A DNA stretch of 63,637 bases, the filler included, from Aduncisulcus paluster (Eukaryota), in NCBI GenBank assembly GCA_024181965.1. It is 8 parts of 8 records of this genome, joined end to end, with 100 filler letters (N's around TTAATTAATTAA, not from the genome) between each part and the next. Parts side by side here need not be neighbours in the genome. Positions count along the whole stretch, not along the records: positions 28,864 to 35,789 come from BQXS01010880.1; 7 more parts are not named here. One strand, written 5' to 3'. Shown piece by piece: positions 12,836-35,889 of the stretch (positions within the stretch are counted from its first letter, which is position 1; each line of letters opens with the position of its first letter). The notes beneath the pieces are model-generated. The model had not been told where the DNA came from. It did not search any database and saw only the letters and a list, made by a program, of their open reading frames with translations. A program made the translations under genes and the position numbers.

Positions 12836-15800
12836 TCATGAAGTCAGAGATACTGTTGCTTCATCCTCACTATTCTCAAGAATTCCAATTGACTCGAGAG
12901 ATGGCTGTGAGATCTGTTGGTAAGTTGACTCACGAACAGTTGTCTCTGTCATCTCCTCAAGAGTTCCACCACTGGTGAGAGAATGAATAAAATTATCACG
13001 GTCTGCATTTTTCTTTATATTCGCTTTGACGGCCAGAAAGACTGTTATTGCTAGCGGAACAATCGACAACAAGACCCCAAGAACCATGAGGAAGATAACC
13101 CCACCGGTCAAAGATGAATCTTGGAATGAGAGAGGGATAGATTCCTCGATATTATAGCAATACACTCGACCACCGATTGGATTGTTGAGTGAAGTGGCAC
13201 TTGGAGTTCCCACACAAAGAGTGTGAGCACTCCCAACACCAACACTGGAACCATACTCTTCCTCAGAACCCCCGCCACTGTGGAATCGGTGAATAACGTT
13301 GCATTTCAGGGTGTCAATAACAGGGCCATCACAATCGACAACGGACTCATATACATTCAAAGCATTATTAGCATCATACACAGTGATAGCTACCCTACGT
13401 CCAGAGCAAGATATTCCATCTTCGAGGATTTTCCAGCTGGTGTCGTCACTGCTTGAGGAAACAAGAGAAGCCGCTGAAATATAGACTGAGGTTCTAACGT
13501 TATTATGTGAATTCAAACCGAGAATATGGATAGTGGATGAATCCATTGTGAGGACAATAATGTCGTCGCTGAAACATATTGATGGTATCACAGAATATGA
13601 ATCGGATGAATCTGAATCCTTTGAAAGGGATATGTCCTGAGTGGCGGTGAGATCAACCTTCATTTTTTCATGTGAGAGAGAGATCGAGTAGAATGAGAAC
13701 TTACACTGACCTTTGGCAGAGCAATTCATACATCCAATCCCATCGATAAACAATCCACACTGAGCATTGGGATCAAGAGTGATGGGATCATTAGAAACAA
13801 GCAGAACATCAGTGCCTGAGACATATTCACCTGTAATAGACATTTGGAGATCTGCAGTGTCATTGGGTTGGATATTGGGGGAAGAGAGGTTTTCAGAAGA
13901 GAAAGACGCAGACTCACCATTGTTAGATGTTGTCGCTTCTTCAAGCCAAACGGAGAATAGCAGTGTCGTAAAGTCTACACTGGCTCCCACAGGTGTAATG
14001 GCATCACAATATACCATATTTGTGTGCATTTCTTCATATCTTGCATGAGTGAGTGTGTCATGAATATCCACAATAACAATGCCATCACTGAGACACAGCG
14101 CAAAGGATGCTGGTGCAAGGAATTCAGAGTAATAGGAAGAGGATGGAGATAAAGCAGATATCCCAATAATGGACATGGTACTATCTTGTATATCGTTATC
14201 ACCTAGAATGGACAAATCATCAATGGATTCGTTGCCTGATACACTCTTTATCAAGGAATCTTCGTGCATTCCACCAATAAAAACAACTCCCAAAGGCATC
14301 ATTAATCCAGCATCATCATCGATGGAATCATTAGTTCCCACAGAAAACATGAAAATATCAGTGTCATCAGCAGTGACGAGAATAGAATCATCGAGGATAG
14401 AAGTAATCAGTCCAAGGGGTTGGGAGGCCGTATTGGAGGGCAATGAAGAGGGATCTTCAGGGGTAATGTTGTACCCGGATGGTTTGACAGCAGTTCCGAA
14501 CAGCCCCTTGACACCATCCACGCCCTGTTGAGAGAGAGTCGTACAGAGACCTCCAGTGAAGCCGGGAACACATTCACATGTCTCAGACACATTATTCCAC
14601 ACTCTGAACAAAGAACCATTGGAGTATGGGTTAAATGCCGGGTTCTCACATGCCTCTTCATCAACATTATCAGCATCAACAATGGCAGAACCAAAGGAAA
14701 TGGAGCTGTCGAGACTATACGAAAATGTGACTGGAGCATCAACAGGATCGTCATTTTGAATAGAAGTTGTGTCCAACAGTCCATAAATAGCATCAGTGGC
14801 CACTGATCCAGTGTATAGGGGTGATCCAAGATAAGAGAAATTTATAGCACTCCCGCCCATGAGACCAGTTGAGGAACAATTGATAATCTGGAGATTAGTT
14901 GAAGATGTTAAGTCGAATGGATTTCTCCCCTGCTGAGCTGTACTATCCCTATCATTTAATAAATTAGAGTTGGTTGTTGAATTGCTGAGAGTTAAGAGAG
15001 CGGTAGAAAGGCACATACCACCTCCAACCAGGGCCTCACACATCTCGAGGAAGACTGTGTTGATAGCCAGAGTCATGAAAGAGGAATTGGCATAAACGCC
15101 TCCTCCGCATCCACTTGAGATGGCTCTGTCAATCTGAATACTTGACAATGACACTGATAGAGTACTTGAATATGCAGAATCAAGGTAGACAGCACCACCA
15201 TGGGACTGGGAAAGACTACTGGAAGATGCAGTTGGTGATGAAAATGAAGAGTTTGATAGTTGAACAGTGTCAGCATAGATGGCTGCACTTCCACCTCCAG
15301 TCTGACTTGAGGCGTGGGAGGAAGTCACATCAGAGAAAATGACTGTACTGGCTTGAGATAGAGTGCTTCCAACATTGATGGCAATGTCACCACCCATGGA
15401 CTGTGCTGTGTTGTTCTCAAATGTTACATGCTCAAGACTCACGGAGAACACGTTATCAATGGATATGGCTCCACCATTGTATGAAGATGCGTTAGAAACA
15501 GGGGTCGTGGTACCATTATCAGGTTCTTGAGTCGATGTGTTACCAATGAACTGTGAGTTTGAAATGTCAACATCAATATACGATACAGAAATGGCTCCCC
15601 CAGAAGTGTAGGAAGTGTTGCTCGTAAATTGACTATTGGAGATTGTTAGACTGCCTGAATGTTGCTTTTGAAAGGATACAATTGATACTGGAGCTGTATT
15701 TGAGGAGTAAGAAGTCGAGGATTCAACATACAAGGAATCGAATACAAGATTATCAACGTCGGATACAGACACATAGAGAGGCTGTTGACACTGAGATACA

Positions 15801-17179
15801 TGCATTCCAGCAATTGTAGTCACGGTTTGAGACACTTCATCGTCTGATTCAGAGAGATCAAGGTACAAACACCCACCTTTCTTTGCATTCGTATCAGTAC
15901 ATGTCAAATTGGCAACATCAACACATCCTCTTCCAGAACACATGACTTTAATGGCCCCATATGATGTTCCTCCGCCGCTAAGGACAGATTCAGTATGTTC
16001 AACCGTGACATCACTCAGAGTTGTGAGAGATCCAACACTATAGAGCACAACTCCACCAGTAGAAGTCAAAGCAGAGGCTGTAAAAGTGGAAAAGGTTGAA
16101 GATGAGATGGAAATTGTATGATCTGTGTTGGTATTATGAATAATGGCGGCAATTATAACATTATCATGAGAGGCTGAGAAATTTGAGAAAGAAGACCCAG
16201 AAATAGAATATGTAAAGTCATTACCTGTTATGGGATTGATTCTTGGAGTTGTTTTTTGATCCTTTTCCGGCAATGTTTTGGACGAGCTGGAATCATCGTA
16301 AGCTGACAAGAGATTTGCTGAACTTGAAAGAATAATATTGTCAAACGTAGAGTCTTCAATCAAAATTGTCTTCCCTCCGATGAAATATAAGTCAGTTATT
16401 GACACCAAAGCGACAACGGAAACATTCTTCACAGTTCCACCAATGAAGGAAACGGAAGATTTCTTGGCTTTAATAAAACACGCATTATAGTTTGATGGGT
16501 CAATGTCATCATTTGGAGATGAAATGCTATCTTCTAAAGTGGGAATTTCTCCAAAATCCCATGTGCCTGGGCCATATTTAATCCCAGTGAATGTAGAACT
16601 CAGCGATGAAGTTGATGAAATAAAAGGAAAGCGATAGAGGGTCGTGGCTTCTTTATACGGGATAAGAATAATATTTTGCATGGAAAATGAGATGCTAGTG
16701 TTAATATTGAGAGCAGACGCCGAAGAAACTGATGGTAGACTCAACACACAGGCCGACTGGTTCGAAGGAATATTCATTTCATTTGAAGGAGAAAGAATTG
16801 TGGTACCATCCACACACTGAATTGAAACAGAAGCGAGAGATTGGAATGTACCAGTGGAAAAATCATCTGTGATGGAAATAGAATCTCCAAAATCAATATA
16901 ATCAGTTTCAGCTATTGGGTATTCCGAAGAAATAAGGGCAATGTTCAAAGAAGTTGCGATGTTATCTGTATAATTATTGAATATCCACTGAAATGCTCCA
17001 CTTAAAGTTTTACATGGGTTTTCTTGATCGCATGTTAGTGAAGCATCATCACCAACGCTGGATACAAAAACTGTTGTGGAATTATCATCATTTTCACAGT
17101 TAGAAGGCGATACTAGTTGAAGTATGAGAAGAGAACACAAAATAAGAAAAAAACATTGAGGATGAATTATCAGTTTCAT
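12836..17179 (-). CDS. Large type I membrane protein with Pmp-like (GGA[I/V], FxxN) beta-helix repeats and an EGF-like motif
   Basis: Signal peptide from ATG 17179. Repeats FTSNTSYTSGGAIS, YNGGAISI, FENNTAQSMGGDI, GGAVYL, GGGVYA; EGF-like CECVPGFTGGLC; TM GGVIFLMVLGVLLSIVPLAITVFLAV with a short cytoplasmic tail. Confidence 0.88.
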   Translation of the reverse strand: MKLIIHPQCFFLILCSLLILQLVSPSNCENDDNSTTVFVSSVGDDASLTCDQENPCKTLSGAFQWIFNNYTDNIATSLNIALISSEYPIAETDYIDFGDSISITDDFSTGTFQSLASVSIQCVDGTTILSPSNEMNIPSNQSACVLSLPSVSSASALNINTSISFSMQNIILIPYKEATTLYRFPFISSTSSLSSTFTGIKYGPGTWDFGEIPTLEDSISSPNDDIDPSNYNACFIKAKKSSVSFIGGTVKNVSVVALVSITDLYFIGGKTILIEDSTFDNIILSSSANLLSAYDDSSSSKTLPEKDQKTTPRINPITGNDFTYSISGSSFSNFSASHDNVIIAAIIHNTNTDHTISISSSTFSTFTASALTSTGGVVLYSVGSLTTLSDVTVEHTESVLSGGGTSYGAIKVMCSGRGCVDVANLTCTDTNAKKGGCLYLDLSESDDEVSQTVTTIAGMHVSQCQQPLYVSVSDVDNLVFDSLYVESSTSYSSNTAPVSIVSFQKQHSGSLTISNSQFTSNTSYTSGGAISVSYIDVDISNSQFIGNTSTQEPDNGTTTPVSNASSYNGGAISIDNVFSVSLEHVTFENNTAQSMGGDIAINVGSTLSQASTVIFSDVTSSHASSQTGGGSAAIYADTVQLSNSSFSSPTASSSSLSQSHGGAVYLDSAYSSTLSVSLSSIQIDRAISSGCGGGVYANSSFMTLAINTVFLEMCEALVGGGMCLSTALLTLSNSTTNSNLLNDRDSTAQQGRNPFDLTSSTNLQIINCSSTGLMGGSAINFSYLGSPLYTGSVATDAIYGLLDTTSIQNDDPVDAPVTFSYSLDSSISFGSAIVDADNVDEEACENPAFNPYSNGSLFRVWNNVSETCECVPGFTGGLCTTLSQQGVDGVKGLFGTAVKPSGYNITPEDPSSLPSNTASQPLGLITSILDDSILVTADDTDIFMFSVGTNDSIDDDAGLMMPLGVVFIGGMHEDSLIKSVSGNESIDDLSILGDNDIQDSTMSIIGISALSPSSSYYSEFLAPASFALCLSDGIVIVDIHDTLTHARYEEMHTNMVYCDAITPVGASVDFTTLLFSVWLEEATTSNNGESASFSSENLSSPNIQPNDTADLQMSITGEYVSGTDVLLVSNDPITLDPNAQCGLFIDGIGCMNCSAKGQCKFSFYSISLSHEKMKVDLTATQDISLSKDSDSSDSYSVIPSICFSDDIIVLTMDSSTIHILGLNSHNNVRTSVYISAASLVSSSSDDTSWKILEDGISCSGRRVAITVYDANNALNVYESVVDCDGPVIDTLKCNVIHRFHSGGGSEEEYGSSVGVGSAHTLCVGTPSATSLNNPIGGRVYCYNIEESIPLSFQDSSLTGGVIFLMVLGVLLSIVPLAITVFLAVKANIKKNADRDNFIHSLTSGGTLEEMTETTVRESTYQQISQPSLESIGILENSEDEATVSLTS

Positions 17180-18420: not shown

Positions 18421-18520
18421 NNNNNNNNNNNNNNNNNNNNNNNNNNNNNNNNNNNNNNNNNNNNTTAATTAATTAANNNNNNNNNNNNNNNNNNNNNNNN
18501 NNNNNNNNNNNNNNNNNNNN
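18421..18520. other. Artificial contig linker
   Basis: N/TTAATTAATTAA/N. Confidence 0.99.
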
Positions 18521-20290
18521 CATCTTGCATGTCACTTGACGAATACTCTCATGCATGGTGCACTTGCGAAGACCATTGTTCATGTCAGTATCATGGAGAT
18601 GACCATCACTCAAAGCATCATCACACCCATCATGCAAAGCTCGGAACAGACTCACGAGCCCAAGCATCATCATGGCATTGTGAGAGAGTGTGCCATCATC
18701 AGACAATGCATTGTGCCACAGTGAACATGGAACGCTTGTCATCAATGTGGAACTCATCGTGTCCACATCACAACTCACAGAAACATACTCACTCAAAGGA
18801 GACAGAACACTCACACGACGGGAAACAGTGTCAGCATGATTCTTTGTCACACTTGCACACAGCTCTGGCGGTTGTCCAGACACACGAGCAGAGACACATG
18901 ACAGCTCACGTTGCAGAGATCGAATGTCACGGGAAAGAATCAATCGTTTCGTCTCAGACGTTTGTTGATCCATCGACAGTTCCCTTGACAAAGAGTCCAT
19001 CTGGGCTTGTTTCAACTCAAGCTGCTTCTCAAACTCTTCGTTCTCTTGAATTCGAAGTGTCTTCTCGGCCTCAAGCTCAGCCTTTGTGTGCGATAATTCT
19101 TTCTTTGTTGCATCAAGATCATCTCTCAAAGCACTCAGAGTCTGTTTGGTGGAAGATATGAAATCACTCAACAATTCATTGATCTCAACTCGTCGCTCTT
19201 CTTTCACTTCTGCAGCTCGTCTGGCTTCACCTTCAACACGAAGTTTCTCAATCTTGACACGTTTCTCTTCAGCTTTCAGCTTCTCCATTCCCTTATCGAT
19301 AACAAATTGAATGGCATGTAGTTGTACTTTTGATTGTTTGTAATCTTCATCTAGAGAACGAACTTCAAGATAACATGCTTTAATTGGAACAGATATTTCA
19401 ACAATGAACTTTTGCCAGAAGTAATTATCTGGAGGAATATGAAAATTTATAAAATACTCTTTGATGGAAACTATTTCATCAACAGTTGCATAATAATAGA
19501 AATGCATTTTGAACCTCTTTATACCACTTGGAACATTCTGACTACTTATATAGAAATGACTGATAATATGGGGTTCTTTAAAAGGAATTCGTAGATTAAC
19601 ATCTCCCAGATCAGGAGTTAATGACAAACTTGTCTTGCCCTGAAAGAACTTCACTAATTTGCTCTGGCTATACCCTTCTGTCGATTCAACTCGAGAGGTG
19701 TCAATATCACATATGAAAGAATCATCCATACAAGGAAATATGTATTTGGTTGAAGAATCAAGTGAATGTAACATATGCTCTTTCATAACACATTTCTCAG
19801 CTATTCTAGAGAACATTTCCTCAACACCTTCTCCAGTTTTTGCACTTGTCTCGAAATACAAAATGTTCTTTTCAGTTATAAATGCCTCAGCAGTCGATTT
19901 ATCAACTTTTCCAGATTCAACAGCATCCATTTTGTTTCCAACAAATGCTACGATTGAATTTTTCATTACCTCCTTCATAACAAGTTCAAATTGTTTCTTT
20001 GAGTATTCAAAAGAATCATGTGAATCTGTCAAATCAAACACAAGAATTACAACAGAAGCATCCATACAAATCATAGGAGTCAACGACCAAAACATCTCCT
20101 GACCAGCAGTATCCCAAATTTCAAGTTTTGCAGGTCGACCGTGAATATTCACCGTTTTTGAGCAAAAAGCCAAGCCAATAGTTGTTCTCATCGTAGATTC
20201 ATCATAGTAATTCTTGATATACCGTCGAATCAAACTTGTTTTGCCCCCACCAGGCCCTCCTATAAAAACTATTTTGTAATGGTCATCCAT
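18521..20290 (-). CDS. Rab-family GTPase fused to an unknown beta-rich domain and coiled coil, 3'-partial
   Basis: G-boxes GGPGGGKT, TIG, WDTAGQE, GNKMD and ETSAK in aa 1-170, followed by >400 aa of extension that is open to the contig end. Confidence 0.9.
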
Positions 20291-28763: not shown

Positions 28764-28863
28764 NNNNNNNNNNNNNNNNNNNNNNNNNNNNNNNNNNNNN
28801 NNNNNNNTTAATTAATTAANNNNNNNNNNNNNNNNNNNNNNNNNNNNNNNNNNNNNNNNNNNN
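28764..28863. other. Artificial contig linker
   Basis: N/TTAATTAATTAA/N. Confidence 0.99.
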
Positions 28864-29610
28864 GGCAGAGTAAGGAAGTGGGAACAAGAGCTCATACATG
28901 TCGTTCTTTCGAGCCTGCTCTTCTTCTAGAGCAATTATATCAGTGATCTCAACATCAGAGAGTGAATCAACATTCAAAGTGGCCTCATGGGAGTCTAACA
29001 TAGGGATAGAATAGTGTCTGTGAACATAACTGGAAGAGGAAGCAGTAGAGGGCCTTGAGAAAGTCATTGAAGAGTCCTTTTTGTCGATCCTGGCATAGCT
29101 TGAAACAGACATAGGCGGTCTGAGACTGGCTAGATGCATGGAATACTTCAGCATGGGCCATTTTATCCGTTTGTCGAGAGGGGAAGGAGAACCAGTAGAT
29201 GGGGAGGTATTGACCTCAATAAGCCACGGTTTGAGTTTGTCATCGATCAAAACATCGAAACCATACAACTCAAATGCAACAGGATAATCTCTTTCACGGC
29301 CGGAGGGAGTAGCAGCAATCAAGGAGGACACAACGTTAGGTTCAGCTGCAATAAGAGTCTTACGAACTAAATCCTTGATTCTAGACCATAACACGGTCGT
29401 GTTGACACCATTCGTGGCAAGATGGGACAAGAGTTGAGTGAGAGCCCATTTAGAACTCATTTCATCACCTGTAGCAGAGTCAGGTTCAACAAACTTCTCT
29501 CTACCCTTGTTGAGGCTGTAATTCGTCAAATGCATGTATAAGTGTCTCCGAGTAATAGCACACCGCTGCAAACTTGATTTCAATGAATACTTTGTGGTTA
29601 TCAAATCCAT
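28864..29610 (-). CDS. Tubulin polyglutamylase (TTLL4/5-like), C-terminal half of the TTL domain only
   Basis: MHLTNYSLNK, SSKW, FELYGFDVLIDDKLKPWLIEVNTSPS, DKRIK. The N-terminal ATP-grasp motifs are absent upstream. Confidence 0.85.
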
Positions 29611-32071: not shown

Positions 32072-32752
32072 ATGAAAGTATACGGCGACCTAATTCGTTC
32101 GATGCATCTAGATGTGAAACACTCTCTTCTACCTGCTCGATCTGTTCAAATGCTTCTCGAATTTTTTGCTTTGATTGATGTTCGTGGAAAAGGATTTATT
32201 GATGATATTGTTTTTACTGTTTTGATGGAAATATTTACTGATCTAGGCCCTAAACAGATCGAAAACGTTTTTAATATGTTTGATGTTGATTTGAGTGGTT
32301 GTATGGAATTTGATGAGTTTTATCTTCTTATTTGTATGCTCATTGCTATTAAGGATGGCGATGAAAAGTTATTTTTGTTCAGACATTCAAAGATTTGTTT
32401 CCAGCTCCTTGATGTTGATGGGAGTGGCACAATTGATCGACAAGAGTTAGAAAGATTAGGTATCATCTTTAATTTTAGTACAGTCGCTTCGAGACGGCTG
32501 TTTGATGAATTTGACATTAATGGGAACAAACAACTCGATGTGAAAGAGTTTCAAATGCTTACTTTGGCCTGTTTGGATGAAGAACAGAAACTTGTGTCAT
32601 ACACAAAAGAAAAAAGGAAAGAGGGTGGATTTCCATGGCTTTGGTTCAATATTAAGTGTTTCTTTGGAATGGCCATTTCTGATGTTGATGAATATCTCGA
32701 AAAGAAGGATAAGAAATCAAAGTCTGGGTCGGCATTACGTGACGGAGGTTAA
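32072..32752 (+). CDS. EFCAB9: EF-hand Ca2+-binding protein, EFCAB9 orthologue
   Basis: Collinear with EFCAB9 as recalled: HLD..SLL..RSV..L.EFF..IDVRGK..DD..F...TDL...QI..VF.MFD....G..EFDEFYLLICMLIA.....EK.FLFRHS...FQLLD, FN......LFDEFDI.G...L...EF. Confidence 0.82.
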   Translation: MKVYGDLIRSMHLDVKHSLLPARSVQMLLEFFALIDVRGKGFIDDIVFTVLMEIFTDLGPKQIENVFNMFDVDLSGCMEFDEFYLLICMLIAIKDGDEKLFLFRHSKICFQLLDVDGSGTIDRQELERLGIIFNFSTVASRRLFDEFDINGNKQLDVKEFQMLTLACLDEEQKLVSYTKEKRKEGGFPWLWFNIKCFFGMAISDVDEYLEKKDKKSKSGSALRDGG

Positions 32753-32799
32753 CAAATAGAGACAGTTGCAATTTATTATTCTTTCGGGAGACAAAATAA

Positions 32800-33612
32800 T
32801 CATTTTTCGAGATGCTTTTCGAGTTTAGCGAAGGCAGATTCATCAACACATACATGCACAGGAGCACCGCCCCGAAGCCAAGCGGCCGGACAATGTTCTG
32901 GCTCTCCAAATACCATATCATATAAAGCCTGCTGTTTGTTAGCACCTGTTGCAATCAACAATATTTCTCTAGCTTCACATATTGTGCCAATTCCAACAGA
33001 TACGGCACGAGACGGGACAGAACAATCGGAATCAGTAAAAAATCTCGTGTTAGCTTCGATGGTATCCTTTGTTAGCTCAACTATTCTTGTTCTACTTGAT
33101 TTTGAAGAACCTGGCTCGTTAAAGGCGATATGTCCATTCCTTCCAATTCCAATCAGCCATAAATCAACGCCTCCTTTATGAACAATAAGTTTTTCGTATT
33201 CTTCACATTCTTTTTTAACAACATCGTCGAGGGAGCTTTCTTCTAAATCTGGAAAATATCCTTTGGGAATATGAATCGAAGAAGATGGGATTGGAACATG
33301 AGAGAATAGATTATGATTCATGAAATGGGCATAACTTTGATCATGGGTTGGGTGGAGTCCCAAATATTCATCAAGATTGAAGGTTTCGATTCTAGAAAAA
33401 TCAATGGACCCATGTCTAGATTTTTTGATTAATTCTTGGTATGTTAATACTGGTGTACCTCCAGTGGCAAGGCCAAGATTAAAACATGCCTTTTCTGGAC
33501 GGGTTTTAGCTTTGTAAAGTCTTTCGACAATATTAGAGGCTTCTACAGCAACTTGGACTGAATCTTTGGATACAACAAAACTAAAATTTGCATATTCATA
33601 TAGTTTTGACAT
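32800..33612 (-). CDS. nagB: Glucosamine-6-phosphate deaminase/isomerase
   Basis: LGLATGGTP, TFNLDEY, GIGRNGHIAFNEPGS, ANTRFF, ATGANK; ATG at 33612. Confidence 0.96.
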   Translation of the reverse strand: MSKLYEYANFSFVVSKDSVQVAVEASNIVERLYKAKTRPEKACFNLGLATGGTPVLTYQELIKKSRHGSIDFSRIETFNLDEYLGLHPTHDQSYAHFMNHNLFSHVPIPSSSIHIPKGYFPDLEESSLDDVVKKECEEYEKLIVHKGGVDLWLIGIGRNGHIAFNEPGSSKSSRTRIVELTKDTIEANTRFFTDSDCSVPSRAVSVGIGTICEAREILLIATGANKQQALYDMVFGEPEHCPAAWLRGGAPVHVCVDESAFAKLEKHLEK

Positions 33613-33991: not shown

Positions 33992-35789
33992 ATGATTTAC
34001 AGCATTGATGTTGATAAGACTAAACGGAACGATATCAGCGTTGTAATTCTGGATGATACTTTTGAGAGGGCTCACCAAAAAATAACTGATGATACTCGGG
34101 TGAAAATTGAACCCGTTAAAGATGGAGCCTTTATTACGATTGGGGCTGATGCTGAAGAGGTGATGAAACCTGTTACTCGACGAATTCCTGTTGAACCACA
34201 AAAAGAGGAACTAGAAATTAAAAAGAAGAGAAAATCAATTGGTCTTATTCAAGATGATATAATGATGGACGATGAACCTCTTGAAACAAAGTGTTGTCAG
34301 CGTGAAGTCTGTTGTGATGTTTCTTTAGAATTATATTTTTTAGCCACACTTTCCTTGGCTTGTTTATGTCTTATTATCGGAATGGTTTATTTATTTTGGA
34401 AAATTAACGGAGGATCAATTACAAATTCCGAAATTCAAGTTATGATTGACAATTCTATTGACGAATTGGAGCTTGGCACAACGATTGGAGAATATATCGA
34501 TCTTGGACTCCCATCTTCGTCGAACAAAATTCGTATTAAAAATGATTCAGGAGTCTTGTCGATCTCTTCGAATGAATTTCAACTTACTGATGGGTTGAAC
34601 ACAACTTCAATTATTTACTCAAGTCCCACCGTGTTATTCGATACAGATGTCGATGTTGATGCAAGTGTATCAGCCGAATCTTTTATTATTGGGGACATTC
34701 ACTTAACAGAATCCAACAGTTCTCTTAACTTGGATTCTCCTCTTACTCTCTCGGATTCCATCACGCTTACTGATGGAACAAACTCTGTCGTTTTAAGTAT
34801 TATATCTGGAGGTGATCTCAACATTGACCAATCTGTTTATGTTGATGATACCTTGTATGCTGATGTTGTTTCGTCTCCTACGGTCAAAATTGGTTCTGCA
34901 ACATTGACATACTCCACTCCAAATCTCGTCTCAAGCAATGCTCTTACAGTATATGAGTCATTAACACTTCTCAAGGGTATATATTCCACTACATTTACAA
35001 CTTCATCTTTTGGAGTGTCTGTTGATGATACTATGCTTGTGGAAGGTGATATCAGCATTATTAATGGCTCTATGGAGGCTACATTATCCTACCTTAGTGG
35101 AACTAATCAATTGACAGTTGATACGCCGTTAGCTGTTATAGACTCGCTTTCTATTACGGATGCCAGCAACTCCACTTTCACGGGCTCATTTTACTTGGAT
35201 ACCTTGGATTCTGTTGAGACTATGGTGTCAAGTCTTCCTTTTGCCGTTGAAACTGGGCCGTTTTCTGTTGGAGATGGAAGCGGTAGTTACGTTAAGCTGA
35301 CTTATTCCAGTTCTGAGCTGACCATAAACCAGAGTGTCTCTGTTAGTGGAAACATTTCTGCTACGAATACATTGTCTGGTTCGAATCTTGACGTTGACAC
35401 GATTTACCTTGGTGATTCCACTATCGTATACACTGGTGCTGACACTGACAATGATGGTACTGATGATTTTTGGTACGTGTCGATTGATTATCCATTGGAC
35501 GTTATAGACTCGCTTTCTATTACGGATGCCAGCAACTCCACTTTCACGGGCTCATTTTACTTGGATACCTTGGATTCTGTTGAGACTATGGTGTCAAGTC
35601 TTCCTTTTGCCGTTGAAACTGGGCCGTTTTCTGTTGGAGATGGAAGCGGTAGTTACGTTAAGCTGACTTATTCCAGTTCTGAGCTGACCATAAACCAGAG
35701 TGTCTCTGTTAGTGGAAACATTTCTGCTACGAATACATTGTCTGGTTCGAATCTTGACGTTGACACGATTTACCTTGGTGATTCCACTA
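33992..35789 (+). CDS. Type II membrane protein with long S/T/D-rich beta-repeat ectodomain, 3'-partial
   Basis: Single TM LYFLATLSLACLCLIIGMVYLFW at about aa 113-135, followed by repetitive beta-strand-like sequence open to the contig end. Confidence 0.8.
35135..35789 (+). repeat. Intragenic tandem repeat, 366-bp (122-aa) period
   Basis: 35135-35423 is identical to 35501-35789 with no N gap between them; the contig ends inside the second copy. Confidence 0.92.
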
Positions 35790-35889
35790 NNNNNNNNNNN
35801 NNNNNNNNNNNNNNNNNNNNNNNNNNNNNNNNNTTAATTAATTAANNNNNNNNNNNNNNNNNNNNNNNNNNNNNNNNNNNNNNNNNNNN
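35790..35889. other. Artificial contig linker
   Basis: N/TTAATTAATTAA/N. Confidence 0.99.

Follow-up and report, generated by a model that had tools for sequence, protein, structure and literature searches.

In Aduncisulcus paluster, a free-living fornicate flagellate (PMC9933649), a 226-amino-acid open reading frame without introns encodes a true orthologue of EFCAB9. In all probability (roughly 80%, in our estimate) this protein is the subunit that senses Ca2+ on the cytosolic side of an intact CatSper channel. The gene was found in a stretch of 63,637 nucleotides, filler included, which as a whole is termed the window, and its neighbours there are a 333-amino-acid open reading frame that matches nothing in Pfam and, on the other side, a glucosamine-6-phosphate isomerase gene that is convergent with it. 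Features are as follows, with positions along the window.

32072..32752, plus strand: EFCAB9 gene, 226 amino acids, no intron (open reading frame; PDB sequence, fold, Atlas and profile matches)
32105..32140, plus strand: EFCAB9-type N-terminal motif HLD..SLL..R, residues 12-23 (sequence, alignments)
32177..32212, plus strand: EF-hand loop 1, residues 36-47, degenerate, without Glu at position 12 (loop-pattern test)
32282..32317, plus strand: EF-hand loop 2, residues 71-82, DVDLSGCMEFDE, canonical (loop-pattern test)
32372..32389, plus strand: FLFRHS motif between the two lobes, residues 101-106 (sequence, alignments)
32390..32462, plus strand: 73 bases of the EF3 region, duplicated exactly at L016:1552-1624 (genome search, run X1)
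32411..32446, plus strand: EF-hand loop 3, residues 114-125, DVDGSGTIDRQE, canonical (loop-pattern test and Pfam)
32513..32548, plus strand: EF-hand loop 4, residues 148-159, DINGNKQLDVKE, canonical (loop-pattern test)
32630..32671, plus strand: aromatic tail segment, residues 187-200, with one Cys; candidate membrane anchor (sequence, AlphaFold2 model)
32800-33612, minus strand: glucosamine-6-phosphate isomerase gene
28816-29610, minus strand: piece of a tubulin-tyrosine-ligase-like gene
18473-20290, minus strand: 605-amino-acid Ras-family protein with a long tail

Elsewhere in the window, positions 33992-35845 (plus strand) hold a 617-amino-acid open reading frame with one membrane helix, internal repeats and no Pfam match, the last part of which is highly repeated in run X1. 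A 1,447-amino-acid frame at 12836-17179 (minus strand) matches a Chlamydia polymorphic-membrane-protein repeat weakly (E 1.4e-05). No further CatSper gene is present among the 31 window open reading frames scanned.

The first EF-hand loop is degenerate in all 12 of the EFCAB9 rows compared, and loops 2-4 of the A. paluster protein are canonical; these three EF-hands are predicted to bind Ca2+. Residues D71 and D81 of loop 2 and D148 and E159 of loop 4 align with mouse D72, D82, D149 and E160, the positions mutated by Hwang et al., the mapping having been made with jerboa numbering as a stand-in for mouse. An acidic residue is kept in the alignment at all four of the Ca2+-binding positions tested in mouse. 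Contigs of run X1 span 32094-32462 and 32433-33552 with no differing letters and no gaps, but this run may be the source sample and its agreement with the window is then not independent. The contigs thin out between genes; that X1 is RNA is a guess. The genome contains one full EFCAB9 copy (4 matches from 8 candidates), the other matches being a short duplicate, calmodulin and a calcineurin-B-like gene, and the same search found no closer EFCAB9 paralogue. The L016 match was considered as a paralogue and ruled out, as it is the exact 73-base duplicate. This EF3 copy sits immediately beyond a transporter open reading frame, at its 3′ end and on the opposite strand, and its junction is a loose end in run X1 too.

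A genome search with the Ion_trans family gave 9 matches from 13 candidates, a lower bound, and four of the nine are whole single-repeat open reading frames on four contigs. Each has a different CatSper subunit as its best single-repeat PDB chain: CatSper1 for L004 (152.8 bits, filter TLDDW), CatSper2 for L001 (179.1 bits, TLDQW; CatSper3 and CatSper1 follow at 78.7 and 69.5 bits), CatSper3 for L003 (156.3 bits, TAEGW) and CatSper4 for L002 (146.2 bits, TQDGW). All four frames score higher in total against four-repeat Cav/Nav channels than against CatSper because four repeats are summed; the best single stretch of each top match gives only 58-91 bits. When CatSper3 is searched with pore and tail alone, the CatSper3 chain ranks first, and in NCBI the identical A. 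paluster proteins bear the names CatSper2-, 3- and 4-like. By these matches, the genome has genes for four distinct single-repeat, six-helix pore subunits, CatSper1-4. The remaining Ion_trans matches comprise four bacterial-looking fragments on the tiny contigs L005-L008 and one polycystin/mucolipin-like protein (L009).

The TxDxW filter is exact in three of the four pore subunits, and CatSper3 (L003:1144-2427, minus strand) has Glu in place of Asp, which is still acidic; this Glu is read from the assembly only. The CatSper3 filter is TVDGW in mouse and TSDGW and CADGW in two other orthologues, the only further ones found, neither of them from Carpediemonas. In mammals, CatSper3 and 4 carry a weakly charged S4. 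The S4 helices of A. paluster CatSper1-4 have 8, 4, 5 and 6 in-register basic residues, respectively, and those of mammalian CatSper have two to six (PMC8004680). A His-rich CatSper1 N-terminus was not found (one His in the first 90 residues), but short His-poor N-termini are normal in marine invertebrates as well, according to the part of PMC13674862 consulted.

Genes for the canopy subunits and for TMEM249 (theta) were found once each: beta (E 2.2e-32; open reading frame truncated by the contig start), gamma (E 3.8e-14), delta/epsilon (E 1.7e-30; possibly cut by the contig end) and TMEM249 (E 1.5e-17; one in-frame 88-base GT-AG intron). The same searches gave a match in none of 14 control genomes. 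The delta/epsilon gene is nearer to epsilon (74 vs 54 bits), and PDB or Pfam matches back the identities of beta, gamma, epsilon and TMEM249. At the end of each of the beta, gamma and epsilon proteins lies a single membrane helix. The genome thus has genes for the canopy subunits beta (as a partial frame), gamma and epsilon. Together with EFCAB9 the eight CatSper genes lie on nine contigs of host-like base composition (GC3 0.29-0.40 vs 0.41 for the host calmodulin), and there is no stop codon inside the matched stretches. Duplicated stretches of 60-100 codons occur in L004, L010, L014 and L022, three of them beside short N gaps, and inflate several open reading frames; the CatSper1, beta and gamma repeats beside N gaps look like assembly overlaps.

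The channel may be pictured as follows. CatSper1-4 would form a heterotetramer in the flagellar membrane, its filter a ring of acidic residues (D, D, E, D), and depolarisation, sensed through the 4-8 basic residues of each S4, would open it. Incoming Ca2+ would load EF2-EF4 of EFCAB9, which would be located under the pore and kept near the membrane by its aromatic tail. The Ca2+-loaded sensor would in turn feed back on gating and alter the flagellar beat. Neither the His-rich CatSper1 N-terminus nor an SLC9C exchanger was found, and pH gating may therefore be weak or differently built. In the SLC9C search, which gave 11 Na/H exchanger matches, a scan over the full length of the two exchanger frames of more than 1,000 amino acids detected neither a voltage-sensor nor a cyclic-nucleotide domain; three frames of 584-741 amino acids were judged by reading, and the other matches include five with open frames of 124-348 amino acids. 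Taken together, the sequences suggest a flagellar channel that is gated by voltage and selective for Ca2+, on which Ca2+ feeds back by way of EFCAB9, and which has little of the pH apparatus of mammals.

The same channel might be reserved for a cryptic sexual or gamete stage, with no part in the everyday swimming or feeding of the cell. CatSper is sperm-specific in animals (bioRxiv 10.1101/459487; PMC12799140, both consulted in part), and Salas-Leiva et al. suggested a sexual-cycle role for the CatSper of Carpediemonas (PMC8516963). On the other hand, CatSper occurs in several unrelated flagellates (PMC11222122; PMC12638846), and no whole four-repeat Cav/Nav channel is among the nine Ion_trans matches (the lower bound given above), which would leave ordinary cells few other voltage-gated routes for Ca2+. 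Restriction of the channel to such a stage is considered unlikely.

More improbable still is that EFCAB9 is uncoupled from the channel, or that the complex is decaying, an explanation prompted by the apparent lack of ARMH2, zeta and delta. Mouse EFCAB9 depends on ARMH2 and zeta (PMC12638846), and this dependence counts against an intact complex in A. paluster, where ARMH2 has no match. Mouse EFCAB9 also shows no direct binding to the CatSper1 termini, according to the sections of bioRxiv 10.1101/459487 consulted, and A. paluster CatSper3 departs from the TxDxW consensus. Family searches of the genome gave no candidate for ARMH2 or C2CD6 (tau), and a second delta/epsilon gene, a separate delta, was not found in an assembly of 23,235 contigs. 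The searches for ARMH2, delta and C2CD6 were, however, made without a positive control. The Pfam beta-propeller models of gamma and delta found no match in the genome, and as the gamma model missed a gamma gene that is present, blanks from Pfam searches are weak. With so fragmented an assembly, the missing delta, ARMH2 and C2CD6 are weak evidence of absence. Decay is also difficult to reconcile with matched stretches free of internal stop codons and with the acidic residues kept at all four Ca2+ positions. In addition, Tritrichomonas foetus is blank for ARMH2, delta, tau and zeta beside EFCAB9 in the inventory rows of PMC12638846. A large membrane protein beside CatSper3 was considered as delta and rejected; on reading, it is a Ser/Thr-rich surface protein. 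It is a single-pass protein of about 2,200 amino acids (L034:333-7186, minus strand), split by an N gap and directly upstream of CatSper3.

That the window gene encodes EFCAB9 itself is shown by several comparisons. Residues 10-172 align without a gap to residues 11-173 of mouse EFCAB9 (7eeb_I; 110.1 bits, E 1.6e-30), and in a PDB search the top two of 200 matched sequences are EFCAB9, the third and best non-EFCAB9 match scoring 38.7 bits. A profile of 11 animal proteins that a source names EFCAB9 gives the query 183 bits (profile positions 1-181) and the host calmodulin 44.5, the 1,968 targets being six-frame open reading frames of the window and the fetched loci plus 8 proteins rather than the whole genome. 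The AlphaFold2 model (mean pLDDT 79.5, below 50 from residue 189) matches EFCAB9 chains at TM 0.81 (9lwo_A) and 0.73 (7eeb_I), with other listed chains at 0.56 or less, and the top three Atlas clusters are EFCAB9 (0.95-0.96). Identity is 50% with the Carpediemonas protein, 38% with starfish EFCAB9 and 24% with host calmodulin.

Trees are less decisive. EFCAB9 is split from two host outgroups with support of 99/97 in a tree of 53 rows (51 of them hand-picked matches) and 99/98 in one of 13 rows, but AU tests do not reject joining the query with calmodulin (p 0.116), calcineurin B (p 0.118) or both (p 0.379). It is the score gaps, and not the trees, that carry the case for orthology. The rival view of a generic protein of the calmodulin, centrin or calcineurin-B type that resembles EFCAB9 by chance, for which speak these AU tests and the fact that Pfam gives only general EF-hand families, is already largely refuted by the gaps in PDB, fold, Atlas and profile scores, the identities and both tree splits, and is given almost no weight. 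A calmodulin or centrin would have four canonical loops and high calmodulin identity; here loop 1 is degenerate and identity is low.

The earlier note, made from the sequence alone, had proposed an EFCAB9 orthologue, and the proposal is borne out by 110 vs at most 39 bits, by the fold scores and by the profile. A search in the reverse direction, among the window and fetched loci, also gave a reciprocal match to named EFCAB9. The collinearity, described as full-length, holds without gaps for residues 10-172 and ends near residue 172-185, beyond which the tail is lineage-specific. Both non-EF-hand motifs that it pointed out are present, but at the level of the family and not literally, as the mouse protein has YMD..CLL..R and FMYRHS. 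Of the phylogeny that it called for, the outgroup splits agree with EFCAB9 and the AU tests leave calmodulin and calcineurin B joinings unrejected.

An origin of the CatSper genes in a contaminating eukaryote or a recent gene transfer is likewise given almost no weight: the assembly is not clean, as shown by its small low-GC contigs with bacterial-looking channels (L005 and L007, GC 0.26-0.29), but the nine genes lie on nine contigs of host-like composition, the closest named EFCAB9 is that of the fornicate Carpediemonas, and metamonad monophyly is not rejected (p 0.447), though not shown either.

The tail of the A. paluster protein has five aromatic residues in 11 (residues 189-199) and no C-terminal CaaX box. 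Relatives were taken as the best 150 of 3,670 profile matches; 154 proteins were pooled, 23 longer than 600 amino acids were dropped, and 73 of the remaining 131, the query included, extend to the helix after EF4. Among these matches listed, Cys stands four residues from the end in 24 of the 73 near-complete relatives and at each other of the last ten positions in 0-2, and it stands four from the end in 3 of the 58 shorter or partial matches. Named carriers of the CaaX box are Chlorokybus, Paratrimastix, Asterias, Branchiostoma and Histomonas, and it is absent from the rows named as jerboa, snake, chytrid, tardigrade and Carpediemonas; the trait requires at least seven changes on a tree of 42 rows. 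Tails without CaaX often have an aromatic cluster or membrane helices. Among the matches listed, an aromatic cluster (three or more aromatics) occurs in 19 of 37 tails without CaaX vs 1 of 20 with it (Fisher p 4e-4; 57 tails of at least 20 residues, 16 shorter ones dropped), the threshold having been picked after the data were seen, the rows being related and many gene ends machine-called. For listed tails of up to 60 amino acids the counts are 14 of 27 and 1 of 18. The CaaX box and the aromatic tail may thus be exchangeable membrane anchors. As Thecamonas has ARMH2 (PMC12638846), such an anchor need not replace ARMH2.

Several relatives stand apart. P0109, P0137, P0154 and P0159 form a long-branch EFCAB9-like group with N-terminal insertions, and all four have a CaaX end. 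Clear EFCAB9 relatives are found under unrelated or empty database names, namely P0014 of Chlorokybus atmophyticus and P0021 of Chytridium lagenaria, and P0015 of Paratrimastix pyriformis, also a clear relative, is named a transcription factor 3C subunit.

Literature on EFCAB9 prenylation or on a CaaX box in CatSper was searched by title and abstract opening, with most subscription papers outside the search, and none was found. Tentatively, and with more doubt than confidence, it is proposed that ancestral EFCAB9 was membrane-anchored, either by CaaX prenylation, as in numerous protists and invertebrates, or by an aromatic helix in the tail, as in A. paluster, that the anchor is absent in the sampled vertebrates, and that Aduncisulcus has a minimal nine-gene CatSper without ARMH2, zeta and delta, in which the voltage sensors are strongly charged and the filter is D-D-E-D.

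In structure, the A. paluster protein resembles mouse EFCAB9 (7EEB chain I, 9LWO) in its gapless alignment over four EF-hand positions, its fold, the same four acidic Ca2+ positions, the degenerate first loop and a long helix after EF4. It differs in having Glu at position 12 of the EF2 and EF3 loops, a residue lacking there in the two rodent rows, and in its aromatic tail segment; the mouse CatSpermasome differs in its partner ARMH2, for which A. paluster has no match. EFCAB9 is conserved from flagellated single-celled eukaryotes onward (Hwang et al., bioRxiv 10.1101/459487).

A. paluster is a metamonad, a condition that the earlier note had set for its inference, and its CatSper is not a relic but a set of intact genes, with CatSper1-4, beta, gamma, epsilon and TMEM249 present once each; the genome search that the note advised recovered all subunits that it listed except a separate delta. 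Its suggestion that the lineage was undescribed does not stand. Salas-Leiva et al. (2021) reported that Carpediemonas membranifera has CatSper1-4, beta, delta/epsilon and gamma, that C. frisia has the greater part of that set, and that the other metamonads sampled are without it (PMC8516963); neither EFCAB9 nor Aduncisulcus is mentioned in the text or the 10 supplements of that paper that were searched. Like A. paluster, Carpediemonas is a free-living fornicate with the pore subunits, beta, gamma and delta/epsilon, and its EFCAB9, which shares half its residues with the query, is named only "EF-hand domain pair". It differs in having two delta/epsilon genes (PMC8516963), against one found here, and an EFCAB9 tail of only 7 residues.

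For Tritrichomonas foetus, Zhao et al. (2025) give entries for TMEM249, EFCAB9, CatSper1, 2 and 4, beta, epsilon and gamma and blanks for ARMH2, delta, eta, tau and zeta (PMC12638846). In the rows consulted, T. foetus and Thecamonas trahens share with A. paluster EFCAB9, TMEM249, pore subunits, beta, epsilon and gamma, and are blank for delta, eta, tau and zeta. Thecamonas differs in having ARMH2, and T. foetus in its two beta and two epsilon entries and the lack of a CatSper3 entry; its inventory, as far as these rows go, is nearly that of A. paluster. Aduncisulcus is absent from the protist rows consulted. A parabasalid EFCAB9 without a channel was dropped as an idea, as T. foetus lists EFCAB9 and CatSper together (PMC12638846). 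Some algae have an EFCAB9 entry and no canopy genes in the same source, and EFCAB9 alone is therefore no proof of a channel.

The relatives of EFCAB9 found in Carpediemonas, Paratrimastix and Histomonas suggest an ancient presence throughout Metamonada and losses in Giardia, Spironucleus, Kipferlia and Trichomonas vaginalis. No paper among the literature matches listed joins CatSper with Aduncisulcus. The A. paluster CatSper is a further example from a lineage whose CatSper is already in print; possibly new are the idea of an anchor in the tail and the use of Glu for Asp in the filter of CatSper3, and the seemingly reduced set of subunits is a lead as well.

With Aduncisulcus, near-complete CatSper sets are known from two genera of free-living fornicates, which extends the known picture. 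CatSper resists expression in foreign cells, and the compact, almost intronless gene set of A. paluster is a practical start for reconstitution. If the proposal of a minimal nine-gene CatSper is true, reconstructing this channel in foreign cells could be simpler than reconstructing that of mammals. If EFCAB9 is indeed anchored by a lipid or a helix outside vertebrates, the hold of the sensor at the pore would be explained without the mammalian scaffold.
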